A stretch of 64,000 bases of DNA from the NCBI GenBank assembly GCA_026706935.1, contig JAPOXV010000026.1, positions 27,721 through 91,720 of the forward strand, in the 5' to 3' direction. The stretch is from Gammaproteobacteria bacterium (GTDB taxonomy: Bacteria > Pseudomonadota > Gammaproteobacteria > Pseudomonadales > Azotimanducaceae). Numbering within the stretch: position 1 is the stretch's first letter; each line of letters starts with the position of its first letter. Of the stretch, positions 40,921-59,689 are shown in pieces. The notes beneath the pieces are model-generated. The model worked only from the letters and a program-made list of their open reading frames with translations. It made no database searches and had not been told where the DNA came from. The position numbers were made by a program, and so were the translations under genes.

Positions 40921-41197
40921 TTCGAATGGGACGAAACAAAAGAGCAAGGCTTGTGTTTCAGACCGAGGTTTCGACTTCAACTACGCTTCGCAAGTATTTC
41001 TCGACCCACAACGAATCACTACGCAGGATCTTCGTTGGAATTACGGTGAGGAACGGTTCCGCGTTCTGGCTGATATCGAAGGTTGAACGTACGTCGTCAT
41101 TTTCACGAAGCGTGCTTCATTGACCCGCATCATTTCCGCTCGCAAAGCAAACGCAAGGGAGGTAGCTGAATATGAGCACCGTTCGCAAGACGATTGA
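40921..41197 (+). pseudogene. Decayed DUF497/BrnT-family toxin gene (frameshift, in-frame TGA, no start codon)
   Basis: My translation gives FEWDETK in one frame, then (+1) SKACVSDRGFDFNYASQVFLDPQRITTQDLRWNYGEERFRVLADIEG-stop(41084-41086)-TYVVIFTKRASLTRIISARKANAREVAEYE. The FEWD, GEER and RIISARKA motifs are the BrnT hallmarks. Confidence 0.8.
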
Positions 41198-41501
41198 TCT
41201 GATCAATCCCACAACCACCGGATATATCGATCCTGCCGTCGTGGATGCGACAACCGAAGCGCAGATTGCGAAACACCAACAGGAAGACGACGAGGAAGCC
41301 AAACAAGAGGTCGCCCGTTACGTGCGACGATTGCGAAGGCGTGTAGCGCTCTCTCAAGCGGAGCTTGCGCGACGCATATGTGTCCCCGTTCAGACTGTTC
41401 GCGACTGGGAGCATGGAAAAGAGGTTCCGACTGGTGCAGCTCGCGCATTGCTGCGCGTTCTTGACAAATCACCGGAGACCGTGTTGCATGTACTCACATA
41501 A
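41172..41501 (+). CDS. XRE/MqsA-type HTH antitoxin (partner of the BrnT relic)
   Basis: 109-aa intact ORF that overlaps the end of the toxin relic. Its HTH reads LSQAELARRICVPVQTVRDWEHGKEVPTGAARALLRVL. Confidence 0.75.
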   Translation: MSTVRKTIDLINPTTTGYIDPAVVDATTEAQIAKHQQEDDEEAKQEVARYVRRLRRRVALSQAELARRICVPVQTVRDWEHGKEVPTGAARALLRVLDKSPETVLHVLT

Positions 41502-41685: not shown

Positions 41686-41955
41686 ATGGCGAATCTCACC
41701 GTGCGTAACGTACCTCATGAGGTACATCGAGCCTTGCGCGTTCGCGCGGCACACAGTGGTCGAAGTGTCGAAGCAGAGGTGCGTGCTATCTTGCAGGATT
41801 CGGTCATGCCAGAAAATCGCGTCAAACTGGGTTCTTTGTTAGCTGAGATTGGGAAGCAGATCCAGTTGACTGATGAAGAGATGAAGTACTTCGAGCGCGA
41901 CCATACGCCACATACACACATAAAGTTGGATTGTTCGTCATCATCGCGGCGATGA
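41686..41955 (+). CDS. FitA/VapB-like ribbon-helix-helix antitoxin (orphan)
   Basis: MANLTVRNVPHEVHRALRVRAAHSGRSVEAEVRAILQDSV is the typical Arc/FitA-type RHH N-terminus. No PIN-domain ORF follows. Confidence 0.75.
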   Translation: MANLTVRNVPHEVHRALRVRAAHSGRSVEAEVRAILQDSVMPENRVKLGSLLAEIGKQIQLTDEEMKYFERDHTPHTHIKLDCSSSSRR

Positions 41956-42179: not shown

Positions 42180-43121
42180 ATGAACGCGAACGTGCACCCA
42201 CCCTATGTTGACGCCCACGGACACTTTGCGAACGGTAAATACCGTCATGTGAGAATGCCGGACCATCAGGAAGTGTCCGATCCCAAAGAACGTGCCAAGC
42301 TGTACCACAATCACGCCATCCGCGTTCACAACGCGCGCTTGCTGGCTCCCCCACCAACCATCGACGTACAAGGCTTTCAGCTCGTCCATCAGGAGACACA
42401 CGTTGACGACTTACTCGACATGGAAAACGCAACAACAGCGTTTTACGCAGAGTGTTCCGAGGTAGTCAAGGAACTTACTGGATGCGCGGACACTCATGTG
42501 ACGCAGCACCAATACCGCAACGGGTATGGCGATCTTCCAGAAGGGCATCCCAAACGAATGAAGCCTACACCTAACGGTAGTCCCGGTCGCTATGGCGGAA
42601 CGCACTCGGATATCAGCCCAATGGCGGAAAATCGTTGGGATGACATCGTTGACGGACGTCACTGCGCGATGTTCAATCTTTGGCGTAGCACCGACTTAGA
42701 GAACGACATTCAAGTCATGCCGCTGGCTGTTCTGGACATGACATCATTAGATTTCGACGACATGGTAGCGGCCGATGCTTGGGGCGGCGCAAGCAGCCAG
42801 CAACAACATCTTGTCAGCTATCGCTTAGCCTATAACCCCAATCAAAGGTGGTACTACTTTCCCCGAATGACGCCGACCGAGATGCTCGTGTTCAAACAAT
42901 ACGACACAAGAGAACCTGATCCTACACTGCGTCAGGTCTATCACGGTGCGATCCCAGACCCAACCACGACCGACGATTCACCACTGCGCCAAACCATCGA
43001 AGTTCGCGTCCTCGCATTATTCGATAAAGAGAAAAACCGGGAGGAGCGAAAGACTCGGTATCAAGCTGAAATACCCGAAAGATTCGCCGACGGGACGGTT
43101 TCAACCTGGGCGTATCGCTAA
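42180..43121 (+). CDS. CmcJ/NvfI-family (2OG/Fe-type) oxidoreductase
   Basis: 313-aa ORF with family-typical segments THSDIS (HxD), FNLWRS, PLAVLD, RWYYFPRMTPTEMLVFKQYD, YHGAIPDP and QTIEVRVLALF. Confidence 0.7.
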   Translation: MNANVHPPYVDAHGHFANGKYRHVRMPDHQEVSDPKERAKLYHNHAIRVHNARLLAPPPTIDVQGFQLVHQETHVDDLLDMENATTAFYAECSEVVKELTGCADTHVTQHQYRNGYGDLPEGHPKRMKPTPNGSPGRYGGTHSDISPMAENRWDDIVDGRHCAMFNLWRSTDLENDIQVMPLAVLDMTSLDFDDMVAADAWGGASSQQQHLVSYRLAYNPNQRWYYFPRMTPTEMLVFKQYDTREPDPTLRQVYHGAIPDPTTTDDSPLRQTIEVRVLALFDKEKNREERKTRYQAEIPERFADGTVSTWAYR

Positions 43122-43125: not shown

Positions 43126-44046
43126 CTAGCTCGCTGCTGTAAGCATGCGCCGCAGCGTGTGCACTAGTTTTGGCACGCCACCAGGTTGCCAACCCAATTC
43201 AGCCAGTCCCTCACATGCCATCGGATTTTTTGGCGGTATGCCGACGGGCAAGGAATCGACCGCAACGGTTTTCACTTCTTTGATTCGACGCATAAGCTCA
43301 ACTAACTGCACTTGGCTGACCGCAATATCGGAGCAATTGAAACGTTGATGCTCGACCCTAGCAAGAGGCGCAGTAAGTAGCAACGAAATCGCCGATGCCA
43401 CGTCCTCGCCGTGCACTTCAGTCCTGAGTCGATTCGAGTAGGTATTACTCGACACATCACCTGTTGCCACATCCGAAATAAGGTCAGCCCACTTGTTCTC
43501 TTCTGAACGATGAGTCTCGCCGTAAATTCCGGTCGGACGCAGTGTGCAGAAACCAATTTCCGTCATTGAATCTCCAAGCTCTTCAGTTTGCGCCTTGATC
43601 TCTCCGTAAAGCGAATCCGGTTTGGTAGGTGTCGCATCGGTAAGACTTGCAGTACTTTCCCCGTACCCATCAAATACGGCTCGGCTTGAAATAAACACAG
43701 TTCGTTTAACCCGCGTTCCTTGAAGCATCTTCAGAAACGCTTCAGTTTGACGCAAATTGACTGTCTTGAATCGTGCGGGATCGTCGCCTTCCCCGCCACG
43801 ATATCGGCCAGGTAGATGATCAAATGCAGCATGAACGACAGCGTCACAATCCGTCGTGAGCTCCCGGAGAGACGCTAAATCCATCAAATCACCTTGGAAC
43901 CAACGTAGACGGTCGTTCGGTCTAAATTTCTCGGCGCCACGCTTGTCAGTACGCCGTAGTGCGTGGACCTCATAGTGGTCTTCGAGAAGTTTGGGGAGCA
44001 AGAACTCCGCCAACAGTCCCGTGGCACCAGTAACCGCTACACGCAA
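43126..44046 (-). CDS. NAD-dependent epimerase/dehydratase-family protein (sqdC-position gene of a sulfolipid operon)
   Basis: It has a Rossmann motif VAVTGATGLLAEF. It is the last gene of the sqdB-GT8 operon. The assignment to sqdC is by operon analogy only. Confidence 0.6.
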   Translation of the reverse strand: MRVAVTGATGLLAEFLLPKLLEDHYEVHALRRTDKRGAEKFRPNDRLRWFQGDLMDLASLRELTTDCDAVVHAAFDHLPGRYRGGEGDDPARFKTVNLRQTEAFLKMLQGTRVKRTVFISSRAVFDGYGESTASLTDATPTKPDSLYGEIKAQTEELGDSMTEIGFCTLRPTGIYGETHRSEENKWADLISDVATGDVSSNTYSNRLRTEVHGEDVASAISLLLTAPLARVEHQRFNCSDIAVSQVQLVELMRRIKEVKTVAVDSLPVGIPPKNPMACEGLAELGWQPGGVPKLVHTLRRMLTAAS

Positions 44047-44061
44047 TGAAGGTCCCGCGAA

Positions 44062-44859
44062 TCAGTTATCAATTAATGTAGGTAGCTCCGAAGGAAGGTC
44101 ACGGCCCTCCAATGCGGCATACCATAAGTCAATCAGAGGTTTGAGTTGATCACGCTTCGGATGATCTTGCTCCCAAGGTTTCTCATATTGGTAGTGCACA
44201 ACGTGAATCGATGGCCAGTGCCAGAGTGCCGGAAGGTTGAAATAGATGTATTGAAGTGCGTTGTACGTATACGGTAGCCCATGCCAATCTGGGAAGTACG
44301 ATTCCAAAAAAGTTTGATCCGTCCGGCGCCAGAATACGTCAGGTTGATCCATCTGGTTCAGCATGTCCGCGAACGTACGTTTAGACGGTCGAGCGACGAA
44401 TACACCTGAGTTTAGGCGATGCATATCTGCCAAAGTCTCGTAGAGATTAGGTGCCGCCGTGAACTCTGGGTACCGGAAGAGCTTGCTGATGTCGCGCACG
44501 ACGATCGCATCCGCGTCAATGAACACCACGCGCTCGAATTGCTCAAGCTCCCACAGTCGCAGCTTGCAGAAGTTGTCGAGGGGATCATGAAATTTCGGTT
44601 TATTTCCCTTGGTAAAAGGGGCAGTCGTGTGTTGGCGTTCTCGAGTATGCCTTTCATTGAACGCGTCTGAGCAAGGGAGTCGTTCTACTGACATCACTTT
44701 ACAACCTTCAGCAAGCAAGGGGTCTAGTGCGAGGTCTGAATGTGTTGTCATCACGACCAAGGGATGATCGGGATCAACACGTTTGAGTGAACGTGCTAGC
44801 GCAAGGGCACCAAGAGCGTAATCGTCATTGGTGACGAGCGTGACATACGCGGCATCCAC
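44062..44859 (-). CDS. sqdD: Glycogenin-like family 8 glycosyltransferase (SqdD-like)
   Basis: AYVTLVTNDDYALGALALARSLK and the DxD motif (FIDADAIVV) match glycogenin-type GT8. It lies directly downstream of sqdB. Confidence 0.65.
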   Translation of the reverse strand: MDAAYVTLVTNDDYALGALALARSLKRVDPDHPLVVMTTHSDLALDPLLAEGCKVMSVERLPCSDAFNERHTRERQHTTAPFTKGNKPKFHDPLDNFCKLRLWELEQFERVVFIDADAIVVRDISKLFRYPEFTAAPNLYETLADMHRLNSGVFVARPSKRTFADMLNQMDQPDVFWRRTDQTFLESYFPDWHGLPYTYNALQYIYFNLPALWHWPSIHVVHYQYEKPWEQDHPKRDQLKPLIDLWYAALEGRDLPSELPTLIDN

Positions 44860-44891
44860 GCTAGCTAAACATGACGGTATTGCGTAAACGA

Positions 44892-46115
44892 TCAGGCGCG
44901 TTTGCGAACCTGCTCGATCGTCTCGATATTGGTTAGTTTTTCACCGATCTGCTTGGTCCATGCCGATTGCGCAGGAATCCTTGTGCGGTCGACACGAGAT
45001 TTGTGCTTTCGAGCGATCTCAACCAACTCATCAAGAAGACCTTCGTCAAGCGTTATCGGATTCAAACCCAAGCTTAGAAACGTTTCATTTGACACACGAA
45101 GGTCGTTCTCATCTGCTTCGCGACGCGGATTGGTGTGATATTCAATCGGTACGCCGCTTAAACTCGATACGAGTTCTGCAAGATCCCTAATTCGGTGGGT
45201 CTCAGTCATCTGATTGAAGATCTTGGTTCGGTCACCACGATCCGGTGGGTTGCTGACAGCCAATTCAATGCACCGTACTGAATCCTGGATATGAATGAAA
45301 GCCCTCGTTTGCCCACCTGTACCGTGAACGGTCAATGGGTAGTTAATGGCAGCTTGAATTAAAAAGCGATTAAGGACGGTACCGTAATCGCCATCGTAGT
45401 CAAATCGATTGATCAAACTCGGGTGACGCTTCGTCTCTGCGGTCTGCGTCCCCCAAACGATCCCTTGGTGCAAATCGGTCAGTCGAAGTTGGTCGTTCTT
45501 CGCATAGAACGCCAGCATTAGTTGGTCCAAGCACTTCGTCATGTGATAGACGCTACCCGGATTGGCGGGATACAGTATTTCTTGCGTGTGCAGTGAGCCA
45601 TCGTCATTTGCAATCTGTACCGGAAGATACCCTTCAGGTATCGTCGCACCAATGTCGCTGTAGCCGTAAACGCCCATGGTTCCTAGGTGTACGACATGCA
45701 CATCCGATTCAAGCTCAACAATGGCATTCAAAAGATTGTGAGTCGCATTGACATTGTTGTTGACGGTGTACGCTTTGTGGCGATCCGACTTCATTGAGTA
45801 CGGCGCCGCTCGTTGCTGTGCAAGATGGATGACGCAATCGGGCCGAAAGTCCTCAAACCACAGTTTGACGCGTTCATACTCCGTCGCGAGGTCCAATTGC
45901 TCAAAGTGGATACGACGATTGGAGATGCGCTCCCAGATCTTGATACGTTCCTGAATCGTCTCGATAGGAGTTAGCGATTGAACACCCAGTTCGAGGTCAA
46001 TTTGACGTCGACTCAGGTTGTCAACGATCGCGACATCATGACCATGGTTCGCTAAATGGAGACTTGCTGGCCACCCAATGAAGCCGTCTCCCCCAAATAC
46101 CCCTACGCGCATCAA
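44892..46115 (-). CDS. sqdB: UDP-sulfoquinovose synthase (SQD1/SqdB)
   Basis: 407-aa ORF collinear by eye with plant SQD1. Matching segments are GGDGFIGWPASLHL, IVDNLSRRQIDLELGVQSLTPI, QRAAPYSM, HLGTMGVYG, LTDLHQGIVWG, RFDYDGDYGTVLNRF and PLTVHGTGGQTRAFIHIQD. Confidence 0.88.
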   Translation of the reverse strand: MMRVGVFGGDGFIGWPASLHLANHGHDVAIVDNLSRRQIDLELGVQSLTPIETIQERIKIWERISNRRIHFEQLDLATEYERVKLWFEDFRPDCVIHLAQQRAAPYSMKSDRHKAYTVNNNVNATHNLLNAIVELESDVHVVHLGTMGVYGYSDIGATIPEGYLPVQIANDDGSLHTQEILYPANPGSVYHMTKCLDQLMLAFYAKNDQLRLTDLHQGIVWGTQTAETKRHPSLINRFDYDGDYGTVLNRFLIQAAINYPLTVHGTGGQTRAFIHIQDSVRCIELAVSNPPDRGDRTKIFNQMTETHRIRDLAELVSSLSGVPIEYHTNPRREADENDLRVSNETFLSLGLNPITLDEGLLDELVEIARKHKSRVDRTRIPAQSAWTKQIGEKLTNIETIEQVRKRA

Positions 46116-47437
46116 ACACCCTTCCTATATTCGTTTGCGCATTGTAAACGAGCATTAGGTCGTTACGTCATGCCTGAAACGCGCTGAGCTAATTGAATAA
46201 TTGGCGATACATGAAGCGTTCAAATAGACGACGTATAGCCGAATAAACCCAAACGTGTACAGCGAAAGTCGAAGCGCATCTGGACTAAGTCACTTCCGTT
46301 ATCATCGACATCGCGATTACACCAAGTAACGACTTGGTTTAGTATAGACCGGATGAACCACGGTGCACACCAACAAAATGTTTCATCGCCTACGTACTCG
46401 ATTCATCGCCCTCGAATCGGAGTAGGTAAATTCAGCTCCAGTGAGATATTGAGTGTCAAACTCAAACTGTCTTCCGTCGTTGAAATGATCGGAAAGTCCA
46501 GAATTGGCGTTGGGTAGCGCAAACCATCGTTACTGCCCTTGAATCCCAATCGATCGTAACGATTCAGCGGTCATTGGACGATTGTCCATTCCACTACCCT
46601 CAAAAACCATCGATAACATAACCCCGATTCTCAGGACCGTATGGGTACTTCACCGTGAACGCAACACAGCGAGGGTCGACTTTGAATAGCCTATCTACAA
46701 AAAAACGGTGCGAAATAGCGAGCCATTCCGCGTTTCAAGTCAACAAATTTATCGATCACACGCTAATCAAAAAGTGTGGACGAAACTAGGTACACCTTAG
46801 GCACATGATTCCTCTAGCGCTGTAGACGACATCAACTCATCGCAGGTGTTTTCACGACTCGAAGACTCACATTAACTTCTTGTCCTGTCCGGATTCTTAC
46901 GTTGCTGAATTAGCAAACAGGCTCGTCATCGTGCGTGTCGATTACGTTGTTATGTTGTTACCTAGGAGATCCTCACCAAGACAAAATCGAGGTTCCACTA
47001 TCTATGTGCGTTTTCGCATTCTGCAAACACTGACGTTTTGATGCCAGTGCCTTCCAACCCCTGTATTGGACACCACATGCACAACTTGCATACTTTACAG
47101 AGGACGGCTCTGTAGTACGTGATCCACTCATCGTCTTAGACACTCTCGTCGCCAATTAGATTCGCCGGTTAGTTACCGTGACAGCTTTGGTTGGCAATCA
47201 GTTTCAATTCAGCATGGTGTTGAAACGGGGTGCTGCCATCGATAACTAGGTAAAAATCGATTCAGGGTTGCTGGCTTTGTCAATACCCGTATCGACGATT
47301 AGCATACAGCACGTCTCAGTGCGAAAGCAACCGACTCGAATTTTGGAACTGACCTGTCTCGGCATTACTTTCTGTCAGCAGTATCTAACTACCGCACGCA
47401 AGCTATGACTTGGCAAGTTTCGAGGTGAACAATCGAA

Positions 47438-48265
47438 TCAGTTTGCAGACGCAGTGGAGGTCTGCAATTCCCTCACGATCCGCAACATCACGTTCACGGT
47501 ATTAGACACTTCATATGCCGCTGACTCAGTCGCTGCGTAGTCGTTCGCGTGAGCGAGGTTGTTGCGAAGATCTCCTATTGCTGTGAAGGCGTTATTCAGC
47601 TCTCTATTGCTACCTCTTAAGAACTTACTTTTTCGAACGATGGTCGCTTTATCGGCTAATTGTGTGTATGCGATTTCGTTTACAAAGGTGTCTCGTTGCT
47701 TCGCTTGAGCGATCCGTTTCTCGACTGCTTCTCGTCGATCATCACTAAGCAAACTTAGCCAACCGTTTGGACAGTCCTTCCATGCGTCCCCTATTCGATC
47801 CGCCATCGCAAGTTCCAATCCCGTCACCACGCTGAACAATGCTGTCCTTGCTGGTAGCTTTTGAAGGTCTGCCAAACTCACGAGTCCTTCAATCCCGCTT
47901 CCAGATGCGACGAGCCGCATCGGTCGTTCGAAGAGTGATCTGATGAACTCTAGGATGTGTGCGTTACTGCCGATAAGGTGATCTTCTGTGAGCGGCTCGA
48001 AATGGTCGCCGACCTTTCCTATCGGAGTATTCATCTCTCCGAAGAGCTGATTAGTATAGAGCAGTCCTGTAACAACCTCATTCATTATTACTGGTAAGAC
48101 GCTAAATCCGCTTTCTCTGACATACTTGAGGGAGTGGATACTGTCGTCCGGGCTGCACGTTATCAGATTAGCCCTCGGAGTCATGATATAGCTCACAGTC
48201 AAACCTGATTGCATTGATTCTATCGACTCACGAGTAGAGTCTATCCGATTGGACCATGTAGTCAT
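47438..48265 (-). CDS. CBS-pair protein with a C-terminal HEPN-like (Rx4H) domain, predicted ligand-gated RNase
   Basis: Two CBS-like modules are present (VSYIMTPRANLITCSPDDSIHSLKYVRESGFSVLPVI and LIGSNAHILEFIRSLFERPMRLVASGSGIEGLVSLADL). They are followed by a helical domain ending in GDLRNNLAHAN, with R at 47564-47566 and H at 47549-47551. The ATG at 48265 is preferred; the track ORF extends to a GTG at 48394. Confidence 0.6.
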   Translation of the reverse strand: MTTWSNRIDSTRESIESMQSGLTVSYIMTPRANLITCSPDDSIHSLKYVRESGFSVLPVIMNEVVTGLLYTNQLFGEMNTPIGKVGDHFEPLTEDHLIGSNAHILEFIRSLFERPMRLVASGSGIEGLVSLADLQKLPARTALFSVVTGLELAMADRIGDAWKDCPNGWLSLLSDDRREAVEKRIAQAKQRDTFVNEIAYTQLADKATIVRKSKFLRGSNRELNNAFTAIGDLRNNLAHANDYAATESAAYEVSNTVNVMLRIVRELQTSTASAN

Positions 48266-48719
48266 TCGTACAACGTTCTCACTAGAATGTGAGCGACTAA
48301 AACTAGGAAGTAGACGTGTAAAAAGATCGACGAATTCGCCGCGAACTTCATGGATAAGAACGAGCCGAGGCGCTCGGATCGAAGCGAAGTACACATCGCG
48401 TTGATACTTCTCACTTTTTAGTCACCCGGAAGAAGTGTAAACCGTGTTCTTGGTATACACCTTTCGATCTTGATAAAGGTGGCGACATTCGTATCCGTGG
48501 GTGTCGATTCCTTATTTTTGCAATACGTCACTCTCCACGCCTAGTGTATCAGCTCATTTAACCTTACGGTCAGATATAAGAAAGAGAGTTCCCTCCAGTA
48601 TGCCGGGAGTTTTCGAAACTTGAGTGCAGATATTCGTACCTAGATTGATTGCCCGTGTCCTGGATCTCCTACGATGAGTACTATACCTTGAAAAACCTCT
48701 CTAAAGACCGCATGATCGA

Positions 48720-51200
48720 ATGGCAATTAAGAAATCTGAACTATATGCATCACTTTGGCAATCTTGTGATGAATTAAGAGGTGGCATGGACGCTAGTCAA
48801 TACAAAGACTATGTGTTGTTTATGTTGTTCGTAAAGTACGTTTCAGACAAGTACGCTGACAGTGACGACTACGCGCCGCCAGTGGTGATTCCGGATGGTG
48901 CTAGTTTTGGAGAAATGCTCAATCTTCGTGGTACTTCCGACATTGGAGACCGAATCAATAAACAGGTTATCGCACCGTTAACACATGCGAATCCCCGATT
49001 GGCGTCGAGTGAATTCCCCGACTTTAATGACGCCAATAAGCTCGGTGAAGGAAAAGAAATGGTGGACAGACTCACCAACCTAATTAACATCTTTGCAAGT
49101 CCTCACCTGAATTTCTCACGAAACCGAGCGGAACATGACGACATATTAGGCGACGCTTACGAGTACCTAATGCAACACTTTGCATCCGAGAGTGGTAAGA
49201 GCAAAGGACAGTTCTACACACCAGCCGAAGTAAGTAGAGTAATTGCTCAAACGATCGGGATATCGTCTAAGAACACGAAAGCGGCGACAACTGTCTACGA
49301 TCCGACGTGCGGGTCAGGCTCGCTGTTACTCAAGGTCGCCGCAGCGGTGGGCAAGCAGATCACCCTCGAGGGTCAGGAAAAAGACGGGCCCACTGCTGGG
49401 ATGGCTCGAATGAACATGATCCTCCACGACTTCCCGACCGCAGTAATCCTTCAAGGCAACACGCTCACGGCACCGAAATTTAAGAATGGCGAACGGCTTC
49501 GAACGTACGACTATGTAGTAGCGAATCCGCCATTCTCCGACAAGTCCTGGTTAACCGGTCTTACGCCGGCGACGGATTCTTACGAGCGCTTTTCGTGGGG
49601 AATACCTCCCGATAGACAAGGGGATTATGCGTACCTCTTGCACATCATTCGATCCATGAAACCAACAGGAAAGGCGGGGTGCGTTTTACCGCACGGAGTT
49701 CTCTTTCGAGGAAAATCCGAAGCAACGATTCGGAAGAACCTCGTACTCTCGGGATTCCTTAAGGGCGTCATAGGCTTACCGCCTAATTTGTTCTATGGTA
49801 CAGGGATACCTGCTTGTATAGTGGTCCTTGATAAGGAGAACGCTGTCGCTCGAAAAGGGGTTTTTATGATCGATGCTTCGAAAGGTTTTTCCAAACAAGG
49901 CTCGAAGAATCGTCTGCGAGAACGGGACATCCACAGAATCGTCGATACGTTTGAGCGGCAAGTTCACATTGACGGATTCGCTCGCATGGTACCAATAGAA
50001 GAGATTGCTGATAAAAAGAACGACTTCAATCTCAATTTGCCTCGCTACATTGACGGTACCGCTGCTGAGGACTTTCACGATATTGAAGGACATATACGAG
50101 GCGGAATTCCTGTTCGAGACGTGGAAGACCTAGAAAACTACTGGCATGTCTTCCCCAATATTCGGAAAGCGATGTTTAAGTCTTCCCGTCGAGTCGGTTA
50201 CTTACAGCTGAGACTAGCGCTTACCGAAGTAAAGCAAACGATTCAGGAGCATGACGAGTTTCGGGAGTTTCAAGCACGGATCGAAACGGTTTTTTCGGAT
50301 TGGTATGGCGAAATTTCGCCTTTCCTCAAGAGTTTCGAGAAAGGTGATCAACCGAAACTGCTTCTAGCTCACATATCTGAAGCACTATTAGCTAATTTTC
50401 ATGAATCACCACTTCTTGATGCATATGAAATTTACCAGTACCTCATGGACTACTGGGAAGAGACTATGCAGGACGATACCTATCTGATTGCGTCTGAAGG
50501 CTGGCTAGAAGGAGTTAAACCACATGAAATACTACCGTTAATTGGGAAAAACAACAGAAAAGTATGGCCTGAACCTCACGACTATAAGATAGGCAAACGG
50601 CGATTCAAGTCTGATCTCGTACCCGCAACTATCCTTACTGCGCGCTACTTCAATACGGAAATTAACGCGATTAGAGATTTAGATGATCAAATCAACGAAC
50701 TAGTACACTTTCAGGATGAAATGATCTTTGAACATGGTGATGAGGACGGATTACTCGCCCACGTTATCGACTGGCGGGGGGATATACCGAAAATTACCCA
50801 AAAGAGGATTGGAGAGCGACTATCAGAACTCGGTGAAAATCCGTTGTTCGCAGAAGAACGTGCTGCACTAGAAGAGTTTTTAAGAAACTTGAAGGAATTC
50901 GCGTCGATTAAGAAGGTTCGCAATCGTGAACAAAAGGAGCTAGATATAAAGATCGATCAAAAATACGCCGAGCTTTCCGATGACGAAGTCAAATCGATCG
51001 TCGTGGACAGTAAGTGGTTCTCTTACTTGACAAATTCGGTAGAGAGTGAGGTTAGTCGGGTCATGCGAAAACTCAGTGTTCGTATCACTCAACTTGCTGA
51101 AAGGTATGCAACGCCGCTTCCGAGATTGTCACACGATGTGAATGAATTGAGCGAGAGAGTGGACGGACATCTGAGAACTATGGGCTTTGTGTGGGATTGA
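48720..51200 (+). CDS. hsdM: Type I restriction-modification system methyltransferase subunit HsdM (long form)
   Basis: It has an HsdM N-domain (KSELYASLWQSCDELRG), SAM motif DPTCGSGS and catalytic NPPF (VVANPPFSD). About 350 aa of extra helical C-terminal sequence follow the usual end. Confidence 0.92.
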   Translation: MAIKKSELYASLWQSCDELRGGMDASQYKDYVLFMLFVKYVSDKYADSDDYAPPVVIPDGASFGEMLNLRGTSDIGDRINKQVIAPLTHANPRLASSEFPDFNDANKLGEGKEMVDRLTNLINIFASPHLNFSRNRAEHDDILGDAYEYLMQHFASESGKSKGQFYTPAEVSRVIAQTIGISSKNTKAATTVYDPTCGSGSLLLKVAAAVGKQITLEGQEKDGPTAGMARMNMILHDFPTAVILQGNTLTAPKFKNGERLRTYDYVVANPPFSDKSWLTGLTPATDSYERFSWGIPPDRQGDYAYLLHIIRSMKPTGKAGCVLPHGVLFRGKSEATIRKNLVLSGFLKGVIGLPPNLFYGTGIPACIVVLDKENAVARKGVFMIDASKGFSKQGSKNRLRERDIHRIVDTFERQVHIDGFARMVPIEEIADKKNDFNLNLPRYIDGTAAEDFHDIEGHIRGGIPVRDVEDLENYWHVFPNIRKAMFKSSRRVGYLQLRLALTEVKQTIQEHDEFREFQARIETVFSDWYGEISPFLKSFEKGDQPKLLLAHISEALLANFHESPLLDAYEIYQYLMDYWEETMQDDTYLIASEGWLEGVKPHEILPLIGKNNRKVWPEPHDYKIGKRRFKSDLVPATILTARYFNTEINAIRDLDDQINELVHFQDEMIFEHGDEDGLLAHVIDWRGDIPKITQKRIGERLSELGENPLFAEERAALEEFLRNLKEFASIKKVRNREQKELDIKIDQKYAELSDDEVKSIVVDSKWFSYLTNSVESEVSRVMRKLSVRITQLAERYATPLPRLSHDVNELSERVDGHLRTMGFVWD

Positions 51201-52378
51201 AACCTAGTTCCCAAGACACGCTTATCTGCTCAGTACCGAAAGACTGGGATATCGCTTCCTTCGACGAGCTATTTAATATCTCTGCTGGAGGAGACGTAGA
51301 CCCGAATTCCTCATCGAAGGAACAAGACGAGTCTCATCCATACCCTATTTACTCTAACTCCACAAAAAACCGTGGTTTGTATGGATACTGCTCATACGCA
51401 GATAACCCAGCTCATTCGATAACGATCACAGCGCGTGGTACTCTTGGAGTCGCTACATACCGAGATTCCGACTATACCGCAGTTGGGAGAGTACTCGTTT
51501 TAGATCCTAAAAAATCAATCGCCGGTCCGTTTATCACGGAGTACATTAATAACCGCGTGAGTTTTGCTGTTGAGAGTACGGGCGTACCACAGTTAACTGC
51601 GCCGCAAATTGGTAGCTACTTTTTAGCGCTACCGCCGTATTTCGAACAACGTGAGATTGCGACTGTCCTCGAAGATCTGAATCGTCTAATCCACAAACTC
51701 GACCAGCTGATAGCCAAGAAGCAGGACCTAAAACAAGCTGTCGCGCAACAACTGCTTGCTGGCAGAATACGCCTTCCGGGGTTCGAAAATGAATGGCGAA
51801 CGAAACCATTAGCGACATTAGTCACGATTCGTAACGAGAAAACACTACCTGCGAGCGTCGACGTTTCGACACTATGCGTAGAACTAGATCACCTAGGGCA
51901 AAATAATGGACGATTGCTCAAAGATTCAACCGCAGCTTACTCAAAGTCCACGAAATATCGTTTCCGTGCAGGAGATGTGCTCTTCGGTCGTCTTCGTTCG
52001 TATTTACGTAAGTACTGGCACGCTGACAGAGATGGAATCTGCTCTACAGAGATATGGCCTATGGTCGTCGATTCCAAACAAATCGATAGCAGATTCTTGT
52101 TCGCAGTTGTTCAAAGTGACCAATTCATTAACGCGGCAAGCAAATCTTATGGCACGCACATGCCCCGTGCAGACTGGGGCATATTGAAGAATCTGGACAT
52201 CCGCCTGCCACCTATACATGAGCAACGCGCCATCACCACGGTTCTATCCGAAATGGACTCTGAGATCGTTGCGTTCGAAAGCCAATGCAACAAAACAAGC
52301 TACCTAAAGCAAGCCATGTTGCAGGAATTACTCACCGGTAGTACGCGATTAGTCGAACCAGAAACCTCTCATGCCTGA
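51191..52378 (+). CDS. hsdS: Type I restriction-modification specificity subunit HsdS
   Basis: 395-aa ORF with two target-recognition halves separated by the conserved helical spacers ([16 protein letters not shown] and [16 protein letters not shown]). It overlaps hsdM by 10 nt and hsdR by 8 nt. Confidence 0.9.
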
Positions 52379-55300
52379 CCAACCTAGACCCGAGAGAGTA
52401 ACGCAGGATCGAGTAATAGCGCTGTTCACGGATTCAAACCATCAATATTGTCTCGGTTATCGCTACCTCGGAAACTGGCATAGCCGAACGCACAACCGCC
52501 CAATTGAAACGAGTTTATTACGCACTAACCTTGAATCTCGAGGATATTCCGATAAACTCATTGCAGCCGCGGTACAGAAGTTAGAAAGCGTCGTAGATGT
52601 GACCGGGGTAACGCTCTATCAAGCCAACGTGCGCACATATCAACTATTACGTTACGGTGTACCAGTCCAGACTAATTTAGGCAAACCTTTCGAAACGGTA
52701 TCGCTTATCGATTGGGAGCAACCGGAAGAGAACGATTTCGCAGTCGCTGAAGAGGTAACGCTTAGAGGAGGATACGCGCGACGTCCGGACCTGGTGATCT
52801 ATGTAAATGGTATTGCGGTCGGCGTGATCGAATTGAAACGAAGTTCTGTTGAGATCGGTGACGGTATTCGACAACTGGTCACGAACCAGGAAGAAATATT
52901 CAATAAGCCGTTCTTTAGCACAGCGCAATTGCTCTTTGCAGGAAGCGACTCACAAGGTTTGCGTTACGGTACCGTCGGAACTCCGGAACAGTTCTACGTT
53001 GAATGGAAAGACGAAGCACTATACAGAGACGCTAGCCAACAAATCACAACGGGTGAACGACTGGACCAGCCGCTCGCACAGATGTGTGGTAAAGCGACAT
53101 TACTCGAATGGATTCGAGATTTCATGGTTTTCGAATCCGGACAAAAAAAGGTACCTAGACCTCATCAATTTATCGCGGTGAAGAAGGCACAGGAACGTGT
53201 AATGAAGCGAGACGGGGGTGTAATCTGGCATACCCAAGGTAGTGGTAAAAGCATCGTGATGGTTCTTCTAGCTAAGTGGATACTCGAACAGGATCCAGAA
53301 GGGCGCGTTCTCGTCGTCACTGACCGCGACGAATTGGATAAGCAAATCGAAGGTGTCATGAAGAATTCCGGTGTCGTCACGCAGGATATGGCATCGCCAC
53401 GCGTCGTGACACGCGCGCAATTCGTAGAAAAACTCACGAATTCCACACCCCGTCTAATTTGCGCACTCATCCATAAGTTCGATCCTGAGGATCTAAGAGG
53501 CGAACCGCCACCCGTCTATGGACGCTTCTACGTATTTGTTGACGAATGCCACCGCACTCAAGGCGGTGAAATGAACACTCAGATGAAACGCTGGTTAGAA
53601 GGCGCCGTGTTTATCGGTTTCACCGGTACACCGCTCCTGCGCAAGGATAGACTGATGACCCGGGACGTGTTCGGTACTTACATCCATACTTACAAATTTC
53701 ACGAAGGTGTGGCCGATGGCGTCGTTCTAGACCTTAAATACGAAGCGCGCGATGTTCCACAACGTCTTACTTCACCGGATGCTGTCGACCGCTGGTTCGA
53801 GAACAAAACTGAAGGATTGAATAACTTTCAGAAGGCGAGGTTGCGTGAGCGGTGGGCGACAATGCAGGAATTGACTAGCGCAGAAGAGCGCAAACAGCGA
53901 ATTATCTTCAGCATTATCGAAGATTTCAGTCTCAAACCACGCCTCAATAACGATCGAGGCACTGCAATCCTTGTGACAGGCACCATATACGATGCCTGCC
54001 ACTACTACCGTTTGTTTATCAACACTCCTTTCGGTAGGCATTGTGAAATCGTTACGTCGTACGTACCAAACCATAACGCGATATCACGTGAACCCACTCA
54101 AGGTGACGAGAGGTACAAGTTCGATACTTACACAGAATATGTTCTTAAGGACGGTAGAACCACTCAACAGTATGAGGACGAAGCCAAACGCAGGTTCATT
54201 GAAGAGCCCGTTCAAACGAAACTTTTAATCGTTGTCAGCAAGCTCCTTACCGGATTCGATGCACCGAGTTGTACCTATATCTATCTCGACAACGAATTAC
54301 GCGACCACAGCTTGTTCCAAGCTATCTGCCGTACAAATCGCCTTGACGGTAATGACAAAGAGTATGGACATATCGTTGACTTTAAAGAGCTACTCAAGGA
54401 GGTGGAAGAAGCAGTTGCTGTATATAGCTCGGACGAATTAGACAGTGATCAGGGCAACGGTGGTGACAACAACATACATCTCAAGGATTTGCTGAGCGAA
54501 GGTAGGAGAAGACTAGAAGCCGTTCGTGAGGAGTTGCACTACCTATGCGAACCAGTTCCACGACCTCGCGACGTTGAACAATACATCCATTACTTCTGTG
54601 GCGACGCTTCCAGGCCGAATGCGTTAAATGCGACTGAGTGCCTACGGATTTCGTTTTACAGAACCGTAGCGTCTTACGTACGCGCCTTCGCAGAGCTTGC
54701 ACAAGACCTGACGAATGCCGGCTACTCCGAAACCGAGGCAACGCTAATTCGCGATGAAGTCAGGTTTTACGAGGAAATCCGCTACGGGATAAAGAACGCA
54801 GCTGGCGAAGAACTGGACATCAAACCATACGAAGCAGATATGCGTAATTTGCTAAATATGTACGTTCGTGCCGACCCCCCGAACGACCTCGGTGAGCTTG
54901 ACGGATTGTCACTAACAGAGGCAATCATCAAAACAGGAATTCACGACGCTATTGCGCGGAAATTGAACCGAAGAGGCATCCTTTCTAAGAACTCAATTGC
55001 TGAAGCTGTCATCAACAATATTAGGAAGACGATCGTAAAGGTCCAGCTCACAGACCCTCGTTTTTACCAGGAAATGTCGACTTTACTAGGAGACTTGATT
55101 GCTCAGACTCGCAAAGAAGCCGCTGAATACGAGGATTTTCTTCGAAAAGTCGCTGCGCTCGTTGACCGGTTATCTGGTAAAGACCCCGAAGATCAAATAC
55201 CAGTTCAATTACATGGAAGACCTGAGGTCACTGCGATTTACAGCAATCTGCCTTCCATCCTCTTGACCAGCCGTTCTCTTCACGAAAATCCCGATGCATC

Positions 55301-55499
55301 CGCAAAAATGGATAACGTCGAACGACTCCGTCTTGCGTTTGAGATTGATCGGGTGATGCGAGAGAAAGCACCAGCGGATTGGCGTGGAGATCAAGCGCGT
55401 GAAGCTCAAGTACAAAACGCCTTGTTCTTGTTATTGAAGAAGAACCATGCAGCCACCGATGCACTCTATGAGCTTGTCAGGAATCAGCCTGGATATTAG
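52371..55499 (+). CDS. hsdR: Type I restriction endonuclease subunit HsdR
   Basis: It has a PD-(D/E)xK nuclease segment ([18 protein letters not shown]) and SF2 helicase motifs ([24 protein letters not shown]). Confidence 0.93.
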
Positions 55500-56212
55500 T
55501 GATGGAGACGATTCAGCTTGGGGAGATTAGCGTTTCCCATACGCGAAAGAGCGTGAAGCATGTTTACTTGTCTGTGCACCCACCAAACGGACGCGTGACG
55601 CTTGTTACTCCGTATAAAACACGAAGTGAGGTCGCCCGCGCATATGTGATATCCAAATTGGATTGGATTCGTGATCAACAGGAAAAGATGCGAGCCCAGG
55701 CACGCGAAACACCTCGACAATTCATTGAACGTGAGAGTCACTATCTCTGGGGAAATCGTTATCTATTAACAATACATGAGGAGAATATAAAACCGTCGAT
55801 CCGTCTCGGACATAGCACGATCGAACTTACGGTCCGCCCAGATTGCACCCAGGACAAACGTAGAGATTTGATATACGAATGGCAAAAAAGCCTCATAAAG
55901 GATGCAGCCAGAGAACTAATCACACTTTGGGAACCTAGACTAGGAGTCGAAGTGACGAATTTCTATCTACAACGAATGAAGACCAAATGGGGAAGCTGCA
56001 ATCACTCGTGTGGCACGATTCGACTAAACACGGAGCTCGTAAAAAAACCAAAAAATCTGCTTGAGTATGTCGTAGTTCATGAGATGTTGCACTTGCTGGA
56101 ACCCGTACATAACCAGAGTTTCATCGAGCTGATGGATACACACTACCCTTCATGGTCAAATGCACGAAGCGAACTTAACGAATTGCCGCTTGCTAGCGCG
56201 TCCTGGACTTAG
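55499..56212 (+). CDS. DUF45/YgjP-like (COG1451) zinc metallohydrolase coupled to hsdR
   Basis: MKTKWGSCN and the HExxH motif in YVVVHEMLHLLEPVH are family hallmarks. Its start codon overlaps the hsdR stop (GTG at 55499, ATG at 55502). Confidence 0.85.
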   Translation: MMETIQLGEISVSHTRKSVKHVYLSVHPPNGRVTLVTPYKTRSEVARAYVISKLDWIRDQQEKMRAQARETPRQFIERESHYLWGNRYLLTIHEENIKPSIRLGHSTIELTVRPDCTQDKRRDLIYEWQKSLIKDAARELITLWEPRLGVEVTNFYLQRMKTKWGSCNHSCGTIRLNTELVKKPKNLLEYVVVHEMLHLLEPVHNQSFIELMDTHYPSWSNARSELNELPLASASWT

Positions 56213-56440
56213 TCACATTTCAAGTTTCGCGCCACTGAAGAGTTTTATTCACGATAGCGCGTACTCAAACTAATATGTGCATTCTCCGACCTGCCATATA
56301 ACGACGAGTTTCGTTCTATGGACGACTCAAAACGCTTCACTCTCACATGATCATTAGATTTCTTTCTCTCCGCTAGGTAATCTAACAACCGACCGATCGT
56401 TAAGCTTCTACATCGTCATCTGTATTACTCTTTCATGCCT

Positions 56441-57169
56441 TTAAACAGGTCGAAGTAAACCGATTCTGTGATCTTCTGTTCCAAGCTCCTGCCACTCGAA
56501 ATACCACTTCCGTAGTCCCTGCCTCTCAAACAAGAAGACTACATCGTTCCCACTCTCGTCACGAACTTCGTTTAATGCTCGCTGCACTTGACCTAAGACG
56601 TTTACACCCAATCTCTTGCGCCATACGACTTCATCATCCAACACCTCAAGTGCGCGATACTGATAAATGTCAGACACTCGACCCAGCGTCGCTTGCAGTC
56701 CTGTATCAAACATGGAACAGAGCTCATGAATTCGCTCGATACCTGGTTTCGACCCTGCTTGAGAGATAAACTGACGACGAGGCATCAAAAACTCAGCGGC
56801 GAACTTATCACAAATTAGTTCAAGCTCTCGACTGGGATTCGGTCGTCTACCTGTATTCTCAAAAAAAGCGTGTCCAAGTTCATGTGCAAGTGTGAAACGT
56901 CGTCGAGTTTTGCTTATTCCAGGTAACAGGAAAACGATCAGCTCGTTTCTGAGTTTTCGTAATTCTCCTGCTACCAGCATCTCGTCGTCCTCGCGGATGT
57001 CGCTTACTTCAAGTCTAGTTGCGAGAGCCTTTAGATCAGTCGGGGGTCCATTCAGACCAGCCATCAGATCTTCTGCGATCTTCGCAATACCGAGATCGAT
57101 ATCCTGTATTTCGGCAAGCTGCCTCACGCGTCGTGCCGCAGCAGACCTCCAAAAGCCGTTACTCCGCAT
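56441..57169 (-). CDS. ImmA/IrrE-family (COG2856, M78) metallopeptidase
   Basis: It has HExxH in FTLAHELGHAFFEN and the downstream family motif ELICDKFAAEFLMP. A ~100-aa C-terminal domain is unassigned. Its ATG directly follows the TAG stop of the upstream gene. Confidence 0.8.
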   Translation of the reverse strand: MRSNGFWRSAAARRVRQLAEIQDIDLGIAKIAEDLMAGLNGPPTDLKALATRLEVSDIREDDEMLVAGELRKLRNELIVFLLPGISKTRRRFTLAHELGHAFFENTGRRPNPSRELELICDKFAAEFLMPRRQFISQAGSKPGIERIHELCSMFDTGLQATLGRVSDIYQYRALEVLDDEVVWRKRLGVNVLGQVQRALNEVRDESGNDVVFLFERQGLRKWYFEWQELGTEDHRIGLLRPV

Positions 57170-59203
57170 CTAACTCGACGCCGTGCGCAACGATATCTCG
57201 TGTTTTGCATCTTTAATCAGACGTTTCCATGCAGCATCGTCGGTACCGCCCCTCTGCGCTACAACTCTCTGACCTCGTCTTTCAGATCTCTTTTTGTATA
57301 AATCAACTGCGAGACAACGTACTACTGCAGGCTGTGCCCCAAGTTGCCTAATAGCCCTGCGTTTTAACATCCCCGACGCCAAAATGCGACCCCACTCAGC
57401 TTCTGCCGCAAAGTGATCCTCACCGTAATGCTCCCAGATCGCTTGTGCATTCGCATATGAGGCATCTGCTTCGTCTATTTGATCCAATTGCATTAGAGTG
57501 TGTGCTTTTTGTAAATGTGCCCTCGCCACTATCTCCGAAATCTGGTAACCGTCATCTATAACCGATTCGATAGCTTCGTCGAATAATGCCAGAGCCGATG
57601 AGTATTCCCCGGTCGCCACGCGAATTTCTCCTTCTAGAATCAAGAGATCTAATCTGTCTTTTGAGTCGGCCTGGATACGAACTCTTGCCTCACTCGCACA
57701 GTACTGAGCCTCGTCGAAATCTCTTGTTACGAGATACGTTCTCCCTAATAAGCTGTAACAATCACCCACTTCAGCCTCGTCAGGCTCATCAAGCTCACCA
57801 AATGAATTAATTGCCTCGCGTAGATGTCGCACACTTTCATTCAAAAACTCGACTTTTAAAATCGCGTTCGTTTCCACCTCAGCGCGCATTCGTAGAAGCC
57901 GTCCAAGGCATTTTTTACAGAACGCAAGATTTCTATGAGCGCCAATTCCTTCACTGATTTGCATGCTTGCTCTAGCTTCATCTTCTGCCTTACCCAATTG
58001 ACCTGTCCTTTGAAGTGCCCATGACGTTCCACAGATCATTGCTCGTGCTTGGCACTCTAAGGCGGCATCATCTAATTCGGTTCCACTACAACATTCGATG
58101 CACTCTTTCGCAACCTCAATGACGAACTTCTTATCACCAAGGTACTTCATCGGTTTGTCTAGCGTTTCAAATAGCCCCGGAGCACACTTTCGTTTCAACC
58201 GAGAAGGGAGCAATCTAAAAAGATCAAACGCCTCCCGACAATCAACAACGTGCTCGTGTGTTACACCTTGGCTAAGTCGAAAAAGCACCGCGTCTAAACT
58301 GTGAACTACTTCGTTCACACTAACTGCGATATCCTGGTCTCCGCTCTGCAGTTTAGCTGTGATCCTTTCGACAGCCCCGAGCTGGACCACATCCCAGGCA
58401 CAGATTGCTAAGACGTCACACGCATACCATTTCCAGTCGTCGGATCTAACATGACCAATGATGTCGCTTACAGAACGCAAGATGAGTAGTGGAACATCTC
58501 GGTTTTCACAAGCAATTGCAGCCCCTGCCGATTCCATTTCGTTAATTAGAATGCGACGATCGACATGTAGCCGATTTTTCATGAACTCGTTGGATTTCAC
58601 GAGACTATCGGAACTAGCAATCACCCCGTCAACAACCTTAGGGACGGTGCGATTTTTAGTTGCCTTCAGAGACATTTCGATTTTTTCGTTCCATGAATCA
58701 CCGTCGGTCGAGGACTTGCCGAGTTCCCCAACCGCGGGTCGAGTCAATTTCGCCGCCCGATCATGCAATGCCTCGAAATCGTCATTTGTTACGTTTGCAA
58801 CGAAATGCCGCACCGCCTTCGATTGATAAGAACCCCTTACTGCTTCCTCTCGACCAGAAGCTGTCTCAGCACTAAGCGTCAGATTGTGGACTTCGTTACC
58901 GAGAACCACATCGCCTAGGCAGACGTCGCTTGTTGGTACAGCACCCGCGATGCCTGCGGTGAGTACTAATCTCGGTTGCTGCTCGTCAATGAACCGAATT
59001 ACCTCTTCCAGTGCTGATAGGTTTCCTATGTTTGAAGTCCTCCCTATTGCGACCTTAACGCTATCACCAACTTTAGTTCTCACTGATACTACCCGGGTAG
59101 TGCCGGGTACGTCAGATTCAATCTTCTCAGCGGAATCTCGGAAAAGCTGCCAAACAGCTTCATATTCCTCGCGAATAAACGTCACGATTAGATAATCAAC
59201 CAT
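57170..59203 (-). CDS. Nucleoside-phosphorylase-family (PNP_UDP/MTAN-like) domain fused to TPR-like helical repeats
   Basis: The N-terminal ~280 aa carry LVLTAGIAGAVPTSDVCLGDVVLGNEV, NEMESAGAA and LILRSVSDI, which are phosphorylase-family catalytic motifs resembling the NLR-effector type. The C-terminal ~400 aa are helical repeats. I see no Walker A motif. Confidence 0.7.
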   Translation of the reverse strand: MVDYLIVTFIREEYEAVWQLFRDSAEKIESDVPGTTRVVSVRTKVGDSVKVAIGRTSNIGNLSALEEVIRFIDEQQPRLVLTAGIAGAVPTSDVCLGDVVLGNEVHNLTLSAETASGREEAVRGSYQSKAVRHFVANVTNDDFEALHDRAAKLTRPAVGELGKSSTDGDSWNEKIEMSLKATKNRTVPKVVDGVIASSDSLVKSNEFMKNRLHVDRRILINEMESAGAAIACENRDVPLLILRSVSDIIGHVRSDDWKWYACDVLAICAWDVVQLGAVERITAKLQSGDQDIAVSVNEVVHSLDAVLFRLSQGVTHEHVVDCREAFDLFRLLPSRLKRKCAPGLFETLDKPMKYLGDKKFVIEVAKECIECCSGTELDDAALECQARAMICGTSWALQRTGQLGKAEDEARASMQISEGIGAHRNLAFCKKCLGRLLRMRAEVETNAILKVEFLNESVRHLREAINSFGELDEPDEAEVGDCYSLLGRTYLVTRDFDEAQYCASEARVRIQADSKDRLDLLILEGEIRVATGEYSSALALFDEAIESVIDDGYQISEIVARAHLQKAHTLMQLDQIDEADASYANAQAIWEHYGEDHFAAEAEWGRILASGMLKRRAIRQLGAQPAVVRCLAVDLYKKRSERRGQRVVAQRGGTDDAAWKRLIKDAKHEISLRTASS

Positions 59204-59334
59204 AGTACGTATGCTCGGTTTTCAACGTTTCACAAGCGATTGACGACGGAACAACTGGGGCGCGCACTGTTCGACTCTCGTACTGAAAATCTCGAATACA
59301 ACCGTATAAACCTTGGACATCTCATTTAGACAAT

Positions 59335-59689
59335 TGGTGGAGGTGGCGGGATTCGAACCCGCGTCCGTCGACTCGCCAACTCTGGTTCTACATGTTTAGC
59401 TGCGCCTATTAATTTAGCTTATTCGCGACCCGACGCGCAGGGTGCTAACAAGCGAGTTCCTAGAGTTTTAACGATCGATTTAGGAGCACTCCTCGATCGC
59501 GATCCCTTAAAACGATTCCGGCCAATCTACAAGGGCACTCAACTGACCGAAACTAGCGGTCTTAAGCCGCTAGAGCGTAGTTGTCGTCGTTGGCAACTAT
59601 AAAAACTGCAGCGTTTGATTTACGAGAGTCACTACCCTCTCGACATGCACCTCGGCCTTTGAAATCTCCGTCAAAGCCAAGTCACCCCC
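59335..59689 (-). ncRNA. ssrA: tmRNA (SsrA)
   Basis: The 5' end is GGGGGUGACUUGGCUUUGACGG and the 3' end is GGACGCGGGUUCGAAUCCCGCCACCUCCACCA. The tag reading frame GCC AAC GAC GAC AAC UAC GCU CUA GCG GCU UAA encodes ANDDNYALAA. Confidence 0.95.

Follow-up and report, generated by a model that had tools for sequence, protein, structure and literature searches.

What does the small gene lying back to back with a type I restriction-modification (R-M) operon in an Azotimanducaceae genome encode, and could it take part in defence against phages? The gene is found at 47438..48265 on the minus strand of a 64,000-nucleotide stretch (hereafter the window) that spans positions 27,721 to 91,720 of contig JAPOXV010000026.1, from the Gammaproteobacteria bacterium assembly GCA_026706935.1. 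An initial annotation made from the letters alone had read its product as a CBS-pair protein with a C-terminal HEPN-like RNase domain. Here we establish the architecture, residue conservation, size and genomic association of the family to which this protein belongs. On balance, we favor the reading that it is a dimeric HEPN RNase gated by an adenosine-containing ligand and acting as an abortive-infection or defence effector. A defence role is plausible because the design of the protein matches that of DS-11, a validated one-protein anti-phage system.

The extent of the gene had to be settled before its domains could be numbered. The open reading frame (ORF) initially proposed, 47438..48394 on the minus strand, is present with a GTG start and 318 codons for amino acids, and it is indeed divergent from hsdM (48720..51200, plus strand). 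Its GTG start, and with it the residue numbering, is probably wrong. The aligned N-termini of all the homologues, 10 close and 120 broader ones, begin at the ATG at 48265 (MTTWSN...), so this codon is most likely the true start, giving a product of 275 amino acids followed by the stop codon; the homologue N-termini match the MTTWS stretch itself. The in-frame upstream extension of 43 codons to the GTG (48266..48394, minus strand) is absent from every aligned homologue and is probably not translated. Residues are numbered hereafter in the 275-amino-acid product, in which the former R277 and H282 become R234 and H239. The deposited annotation of this metagenome-assembled genome (P0001, OXG25_09455, "hypothetical protein") is shorter still, with 215 amino acids (47438-48082) starting at M61. 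Judging from the residues ahead of M61, which are conserved throughout the family, the start of this call is placed too late, at the cost of most of the first CBS motif. The 275-amino-acid product would be a cytoplasmic protein.

The N-terminal part of the protein is a CBS pair, in agreement with the two CBS-like modules noticed there at the outset. In an AlphaFold2 (AF2) model of the full-length protein built from 120 homologues (pLDDT 91.1, pTM 0.86), residues ~20-135 form two beta-alpha-beta-beta-alpha units. A Foldseek search with the full model retrieved the CBS pairs of CorC/CNNM, CBSX, MJ0922 and DarB (E 3e-7 to 1e-4, target TM 0.6-0.74), many of these neighbors having been solved with AMP or ATP. 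CBS motif 1, at residues ~20-76 (48038..48208, minus strand), includes F54 and is supported by AF2 secondary structure, Foldseek and the hhalign register with DS-11; CBS motif 2, at residues ~85-135 (47861..48013, minus strand; AF2 and Foldseek), includes a ribose-binding-type motif, G127-L-V-S130-L-A-D133. Profile matches were fainter. The Pfam CBS model (PF00571) scored 14.4 bits (E 0.05) with the window protein, below the cut-off of 24, and matched 75 of 120 relatives (E<=0.01), while the family profile found CorC CBS pairs among PDB sequences at E 0.01-0.04. The pattern G-h-h-S/T-x-x-D/N at the last strand of a CBS motif is a ribose-phosphate binding motif. In the second motif of the family G127 is kept in 265/266 members, S or T at position 130 in 230/267 and D133 in 267/267; the equivalent in the first motif, G67-L-L-Y-T-N-Q, is non-canonical. 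The position of F54 is occupied by F or Y in 255 of 256 members. From the AMP- and ATP-bound structural neighbors, and from the correspondence of F54 with Y157 of DS-11, we infer by analogy that the CBS pair binds an adenosine-type ligand.

The search with the whole model returned CBS pairs alone and masked the C-terminal domain, and therefore this domain was modelled on its own. Residues 137-269 (47459..47857, minus strand) gave an all-helical model with a pLDDT of 91.8, as expected from the first reading of the sequence. In domain numbering, the model has long helices at 4-28, 42-57, 87-105 and 114-136 and short inserted helices at 64-67 and 70-79. The LRNNLAH stretch that had suggested a HEPN RNase contains the Rx4H motif R234-N-N-L-A-H239 (47549..47566, minus strand), read directly from the sequence and located at the end of helix 220-238 and the start of the following loop. 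Inspection of the order of secondary structure elements places its R (R101 of the domain) where the penultimate long helix ends and its H (H106) on the first loop residue. According to Anantharaman, Makarova, Burroughs, Koonin and Aravind (2013; PMC3710099), HEPN domains carry the motif where helix 3 ends and have an insert between helices 2 and 3, and both the motif position and the inserted helices of our model agree with this layout.

A single Rx4H carries little weight by itself, since chance alone would give about 0.35 such motifs for a content of 19 Arg and 5 His. Judged from the alignments, it is its conservation that exceeds chance: R and H are both present in all 253 members that cover the motif, 50%-identity cluster representatives included, and R is followed by D in 136, N in 116 and H in 1. 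E151 (codon at 47813..47815, minus strand), in the first long helix of the domain, is the acidic residue of the "LE..M..R" helix noticed earlier ahead of the motif, and it is kept in 266 of 267 members. These features correspond to the definition of HEPN proteins as having Rx4-6H, a polar residue (N, D or H) immediately following R and, upstream, an acidic residue (PMC3710099).

Profile and fold searches with the helical domain gave weak matches that recurrently pointed to HEPN families and to no others. With Pfam these were Apea (0.0035-0.017), RiboL-PSP in 11/120 members (best 4.2e-5), Swt1 in 5/21 and STY4199 in 1/21. With PADLOC, the Csx1/Csm6 and CARF_HEPN models matched at 2e-4 to 0.02, and Csx1/Csm6, at 2e-4 over the HEPN part, were the best matches in the defence library. 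All of these Pfam and PADLOC matches lie under the curated thresholds. The top Foldseek match of the isolated domain in the PDB was the HEPN toxin HepT (6m6u_H; E 0.41, probability 0.47), and the HEPN domain of Csm6 gave the highest query TM, 0.47. No NCBIfam model matched the window protein, and a sequence-profile search of the PDB with the C-terminal domain found spurious coiled-coil matches only. A comparison by hhalign with a Swt1-HEPN profile, built from the DUF499 proteins of neighboring loci (5 sequences, then 84 after a metagenome scan), aligned the Rx4H stretch alone (E 0.015-0.034); the HEPN domain of DS-11, used as positive control, failed as well, so that this comparison carries no weight in either direction. 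The HEPN assignment of the initial annotation therefore stands as regards the motif, its conservation and the helix order, and falls short of a significant fold or profile match. Taking these results together, we consider it likely that the helical domain is a HEPN domain.

A protein of the same kind is known to act against phages. DS-11 (working name IMPD; WP_000257686.1, 365 amino acids, Escherichia coli) is a one-protein CBS plus HEPN anti-phage system found with DefensePredictor, a work that appeared on bioRxiv in January 2025 and in Science in 2026 (PMC13092281; bioRxiv 10.1101/2025.01.08.631726). Wild-type DS-11 protects against phage whereas the R330A and H335A mutants and the CBS mutant Y157A do not; it is active alone in E. 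coli K-12, its AlphaFold3 dimer binds ATP, and its HEPN domain was recognized by HHpred as Swt1-like (98%) or SAV2148-like (95.7%) (PMC13092281). When the profile of the window family was aligned with that of the DS-11 family by hhalign, the two matched over 226 co-linear columns (91.8% probability, E 7e-7) in a register that pairs F54 with Y157, E151 with E257, R234 with R330 and H239 with H335. Both proteins have a CBS pair followed directly by a C-terminal HEPN domain with R-[ND]-x3-H, the equivalents of Y157, E257, R330 and H335 are conserved in the window family (E257 is invariant in the DS-11 family), and neither has an obligate partner gene. When the domains were aligned separately, the CBS halves matched at 87.6% and the HEPN halves at 26.9% (E 6.8e-4), with cross-domain controls at E 0.13-0.57, and pairwise BLASTP between the window protein and DS-11 reached E 0.056 in the CBS region only. 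DS-11 also has an N-terminal region of ~125 amino acids, with conserved columns in the DS-11-family members (350-390 amino acids), which is missing from the window family, whose proteins start ~20 residues ahead of the first CBS motif. Because of the low score of the HEPN halves, the BLASTP value and this missing region, the window family appears from sequence comparison to be separate from DS-11, a family of the same kind of protein and not its orthologue. In a sample of three loci only, DS-11-family genes stood alone, their surroundings being an integrase fragment, the end of a prophage and a defence-like island, and none of the three was inside an R-M operon. Protection that depends on HEPN and CBS residues has been shown for DS-11 itself only. 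Another E. coli protein, WP_001532511.1, a "CBS domain-containing protein" of 263 amino acids, appears in the tables of DefensePredictor among the genes predicted to act in defence (PMC13092281).

The family of the window protein is large, uncharacterized and devoid of a dedicated Pfam or NCBIfam model. A word-indexed search with the single sequence found 9 relatives, a profile search at least 741 family proteins, and an exhaustive phmmer search 1378 clusters at 50% identity with E<=1e-3, of which 501 had E<=1e-10. Nearly all members have 260-300 amino acids and go under the label "hypothetical" or "CBS domain-containing protein". The named host genomes belong to Alpha- and Gammaproteobacteria, Longimicrobiales, Vicinamibacterales, Binatia and Nitrospira. 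Members on haloarchaeal megaplasmids, with 23-31% identity, keep G127, D133, E151, R234 and H239 and adjoin restriction endonucleases and transposases. The collection of phage genomes held no homologue, and a phage-borne origin or a counter-defence role is accordingly unsupported.

We looked at the neighborhoods of the homologues in 80 species-representative loci, retrieved with two family-specific peptide patterns and taken with 10-kb flanks, in which crude ORF calls were clustered and the recurrent clusters annotated. Type I R-M genes were present in 16/80 loci. In 12 of these 16 the CBS-HEPN gene lies directly after hsdS on the same strand, typically in the order hsdM-hsdS-[CBS-HEPN]-hsdR, and in 2 loci it lies directly before hsdM. 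Overlaps of 4 nucleotides occur with hsdS (L007, L027), hsdR (L040, L053) and hsdM (L056), and the divergent arrangement of the window was seen in one locus (L058). Roughly 1% or less of random genes would be expected to have a type I system within 10 kb, so the 20% observed here represents a large excess over that figure. In six loci (L033, L035, L047, L052, L061 and L066; about 6000-14500) the CBS-HEPN gene is placed between a DUF1156 methylase gene and the gene of a Swt1-HEPN-DUF499 ATPase, usually together with a SNF2-NOV_C helicase gene, an R-M-like system described as Ava_2192-type (PMC3710099). The DUF499 ATPase has an N-terminal Swt1-like HEPN domain (Pfam 1.4e-34), and these operons thus carry two different HEPN proteins. 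Altogether, R-M-like loci amount to 26/80, rising to 34/80 with the inclusion of integrases and transposases. Of the closest relatives (50-57% identity), two are upstream of a type II methylase/BglII-like pair with SNF2/NOV_C, one is upstream of hsdMSR, and two occupy a small variable insert between uvrA and thrS. The immediate neighbors in the remaining loci are mixed and include insertion sequence (IS) elements, integrases, AbiEii, AbiU, type II, III and IV restriction endonucleases and ordinary metabolic genes. The homologues are therefore strongly associated with R-M and defence-type neighborhoods, as the initial annotation had anticipated. No partner gene recurs across the 80 loci, which indicates that the protein can act alone; the earlier idea of a single-gene effector is sustained to this extent, and has to be tempered by the translational coupling of the gene within R-M operons in many genomes. 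Two other clusters were also seen together with the CBS-HEPN gene: c45 (conserved, unannotated ORFs of ~266-271 amino acids) inside two type I operons (L018 3662-4459, L021 8995-9807), and c57 (~352-379 amino acids), which follows it in L036 and L042.

The CBS-HEPN architecture is not new, and the statement of the initial annotation that the protein could not be matched to a named system does not hold in view of DS-11 and of earlier work. CBS fusions, with or without HD, were already catalogued in 2013 under the Swt1-like HEPN family, with alr3009 and a Pelobacter propionicus protein (gi 118580987) as examples, and ligand-regulated RNA cleavage was proposed for them (PMC3710099). Like the window protein, these fusions join a nucleotide-sensing CBS module to an "active" HEPN domain bearing Rx4H; unlike it, they may carry an extra HD domain, and they were read as signalling rather than defence proteins (PMC3710099). 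The comparison of alr3009-type fusions with the window family is one of described architecture. Csm6 and Csx1, the CARF-HEPN proteins of type III CRISPR-Cas systems, share with the mechanism proposed here the principle of a small-molecule sensor gating a dimeric HEPN RNase; their sensor is a CARF domain whereas that of the window protein is a CBS pair, with no CRISPR-Cas system or cyclase nearby.

Other comparisons concern genomic position as well as architecture. The PrrC gene sits embedded among R-M genes in the prr locus. PrrC and RloC are HEPN nucleases (PMC3710099) that combine a nucleotide-binding regulatory N-terminal domain with a C-terminal HEPN-type RNase having essential R and H residues, a layout similar to that of the window protein. 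Their embedding in a type I R-M locus is shared by 12-14 of the 80 homologous loci, whereas the window gene is divergent from its hsd operon across a 454-nucleotide spacer. Their regulatory domain is an ABC-type NTPase in place of a CBS pair, and no P-loop NTPase family matched the window protein in Pfam or NCBIfam. They are anticodon nucleases, and there is no sign of tRNA targeting by the window protein. The Ava_2192-type system (Swt1-HEPN-DUF499 ATPase, DUF1156 methylase and SNF2-DUF3883 (NOV_C) helicase) resembles the R-M loci considered here in being an R-M-like operon with a HEPN RNase (PMC3710099), and it houses the six homologues mentioned above; its HEPN domain, however, is N-terminal to an AAA+ ATPase, so that it is a neighbor and not a homologue, and the system is absent from the window. 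A HepT/MntA (HEPN-MNT) toxin-antitoxin system was considered and rejected, as neither MNT nor any other recurrent small partner was found in the 80 loci and the 1.3 kb downstream of the window gene are free of ORFs.

For the working of the favored adenosine-gated effector we infer HEPN catalysis, dimerization, ligand gating and a defence phenotype, as follows. The N-terminal CBS pair, a Bateman module, would bind an adenosine-containing ligand and control the C-terminal RNase. This would be a metal-independent enzyme of the HEPN type, with R234 and H239 as catalytic residues and E151 assisting. Other HEPN enzymes and DS-11 suggest by analogy that the protein is probably a dimer, and the state of the CBS pair would decide whether the two HEPN domains build a composite active site. 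An infection trigger would then lead to cleavage of cellular RNA, phage RNA or both, and the infection would be aborted. Several of our results weigh against this reading. Every Pfam HEPN match falls below the gathering score, and the isolated domain has no significant match to a solved HEPN structure in the PDB (best E 0.41, TM 0.35-0.47), nor any significant match in BFVD. In the comparison with DS-11 the HEPN halves match weakly when taken alone, the ubiquitous CBS pair supplying most of the full-length score. About two thirds of the loci lack a recognizable defence neighbor, some relatives lie between housekeeping genes (uvrA, thrS), though in small variable inserts, and the background rate for the R-M association was not computed.

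Four other explanations were weighed. The arrangement of the homologues recalls PrrC in that many loci have the gene between hsdS and hsdR or at the operon ends with 4-nucleotide overlaps, others having it within DUF1156/DUF499 or type II R-M operons, and this raises the question of whether the protein, like PrrC and RloC, guards the R-M system. It would then be a back-up effector that stays silent for as long as the R-M complex or its cofactors (S-adenosylmethionine (SAM) and ATP) are normal, and is set off when a phage disables restriction, for example by means of a SAM hydrolase, Stp-like peptides or inhibitors of the Ocr/ArdA type. The CBS pair may sense the pool of these cofactors or make contact with the Hsd complex. 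CBS pairs bind SAM and adenylates, and the AMP- or ATP-bound Foldseek templates fit this idea. We nevertheless regard such a guard as unlikely, since the window gene is not embedded but divergent from hsdM across the 454-nucleotide spacer, about two thirds of the loci have no R-M system within 10 kb, DS-11 works alone in E. coli K-12, and there is no evidence for physical interaction or SAM binding. A second kind of explanation leaves phages out altogether: a CBS-gated RNase might tune RNA stability to energy charge or to a second messenger as a housekeeping or stress regulator. This is how CBS-HEPN fusions were read in 2013 (PMC3710099), and it would suit the relatives found among housekeeping genes and the wide spread of the family in free-living Proteobacteria, Acidobacteriota, Gemmatimonadota and haloarchaea. 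The distribution is, however, patchy, with variable inserts, megaplasmids and integrase or IS neighbors, the tight embedding in R-M operons is recurrent, and the phage defence of DS-11 depends on the equivalent residues, all of which make a purely regulatory role quite improbable.

The absence of a significant HEPN fold or profile match allows the helical domain to be seen as no nuclease at all but as a regulatory or protein- or DNA-binding bundle, for instance a modulator of the R-M system, in which the conserved R, H and E would bind phosphate or a ligand; helical bundles are readily confused and catalytically inactive HEPN domains exist (PMC3710099). Yet 253 diverse members show 100% conservation of R, of H and of a polar residue directly behind R, which is the signature of active HEPN domains and is lost in inactive families, the recurrent weak matches are all to HEPN families, and the R and H mutants of DS-11 are null, so we hold this alternative to be very unlikely. 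The weak match to HepT, a HEPN toxin of toxin-antitoxin systems and the best fold match obtained, together with the mobile or variable regions in which the gene is found and the antitoxin-like genes elsewhere in the window, could suggest instead a HEPN toxin restrained in cis by its own CBS pair, stabilizing the island or the R-M cassette by post-segregational killing. With no MNT or other recurrent antitoxin partner in the 80 loci, and with no obvious addiction mechanism for a single protein inhibited in cis, we give this explanation hardly any credence.

Concerning the surroundings of the gene, the window contains a complete type I R-M operon from which the CBS-HEPN gene is separate and divergent. 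The intergenic region between the two start codons (48266..48719) measures 454 nucleotides. It is followed on the plus strand by hsdM (48720..51200; Pfam N6_Mtase 1.5e-95 and HsdM_N), hsdS for the specificity subunit (51191..52378; Pfam Methylase_S 6.1e-27, PADLOC Specificity_I), hsdR for the restriction subunit (52371..55499; Pfam HSDR_N, SWI2_SNF2 and T1R_D3, PADLOC REase_I at full length) and, at the operon end, the gene of a YgjP-like metallopeptidase (55499..56212; Pfam YgjP-like 1.1e-55). The methyltransferase HsdM is unusually long, with 826 amino acids and a C-terminal extension of ~370 residues past the N6_Mtase domain. Because it matches the full length of the PADLOC MTase_I model of 810 positions, it belongs to a known long subclass. 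Scans for promoters and terminators around the CBS-HEPN gene gave nothing above shuffled sequences, and Rfam found no match in the intergenic region or in the 1.3 kb downstream of the gene. This downstream stretch (46116-47437) has no ORF longer than 60 amino acids on either strand and might represent a decayed gene, the junction of an island or an unknown RNA.

The region from 46000 to 60000 has a G+C content of 0.455-0.49, compared with ~0.51 elsewhere, and holds, besides the hsd operon and the CBS-HEPN gene, two further genes of defence-like type. It is bordered by a tmRNA gene (59335-59689, minus strand) with the tag ANDDNYALAA, and it looks like an ssrA-adjacent island; neither a direct repeat of the tmRNA (ssrA) 3' end of 11 nucleotides or more nor an integrase gene was found in the 30000-59300 part of the window. 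The two further genes are on the minus strand. One (57170-59203) encodes a 677-amino-acid protein with an N-terminal PNP_UDP_1 phosphorylase/nucleosidase domain and C-terminal TPR repeats (PADLOC "Effector PN-superfamily", 1.7e-15), and the one that follows it (56441-57169) encodes a CapP-like M78/IrrE peptidase (PADLOC capP, 4.8e-22). This pair is possibly another defence module, placed between the tmRNA gene and the hsd operon. Farther away on the plus strand, two antitoxin-like genes, MqsA/HTH_3-like (41172-41501) and FitA-like ribbon-helix-helix (41686-41955), have no obvious adjacent toxin gene, and a 313-amino-acid ORF (42180-43121) with no Pfam or PADLOC match adjoins a predicted cluster of a sugar-nucleotide epimerase, a GT8 glycosyltransferase and an epimerase (43126-46115).

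The window gene is thus a plausible defence gene, a member of a separate, uncharacterized and misannotated family of already known architecture, whose size goes far beyond what annotation suggests and which is represented in its source genome by a truncated call. If functional, the window protein, with its 275 amino acids, would be a minimal form of a CBS-gated HEPN RNase, and the single validated example, DS-11, would be extended to Alpha- and Gammaproteobacteria, Acidobacteriota, Gemmatimonadota, Binatia, Nitrospira and haloarchaea; a model for the family would then merit inclusion in the libraries used for defence annotation. The embedding in R-M operons offers a testable handle on the CBS ligand and the infection cue, both of which were left unresolved in the DS-11 paper. 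Should the protein prove to guard the R-M system, this would represent the logic of PrrC re-invented with a CBS sensor, and would explain the translational coupling of the gene into type I, type II and DUF1156/DUF499 operons.

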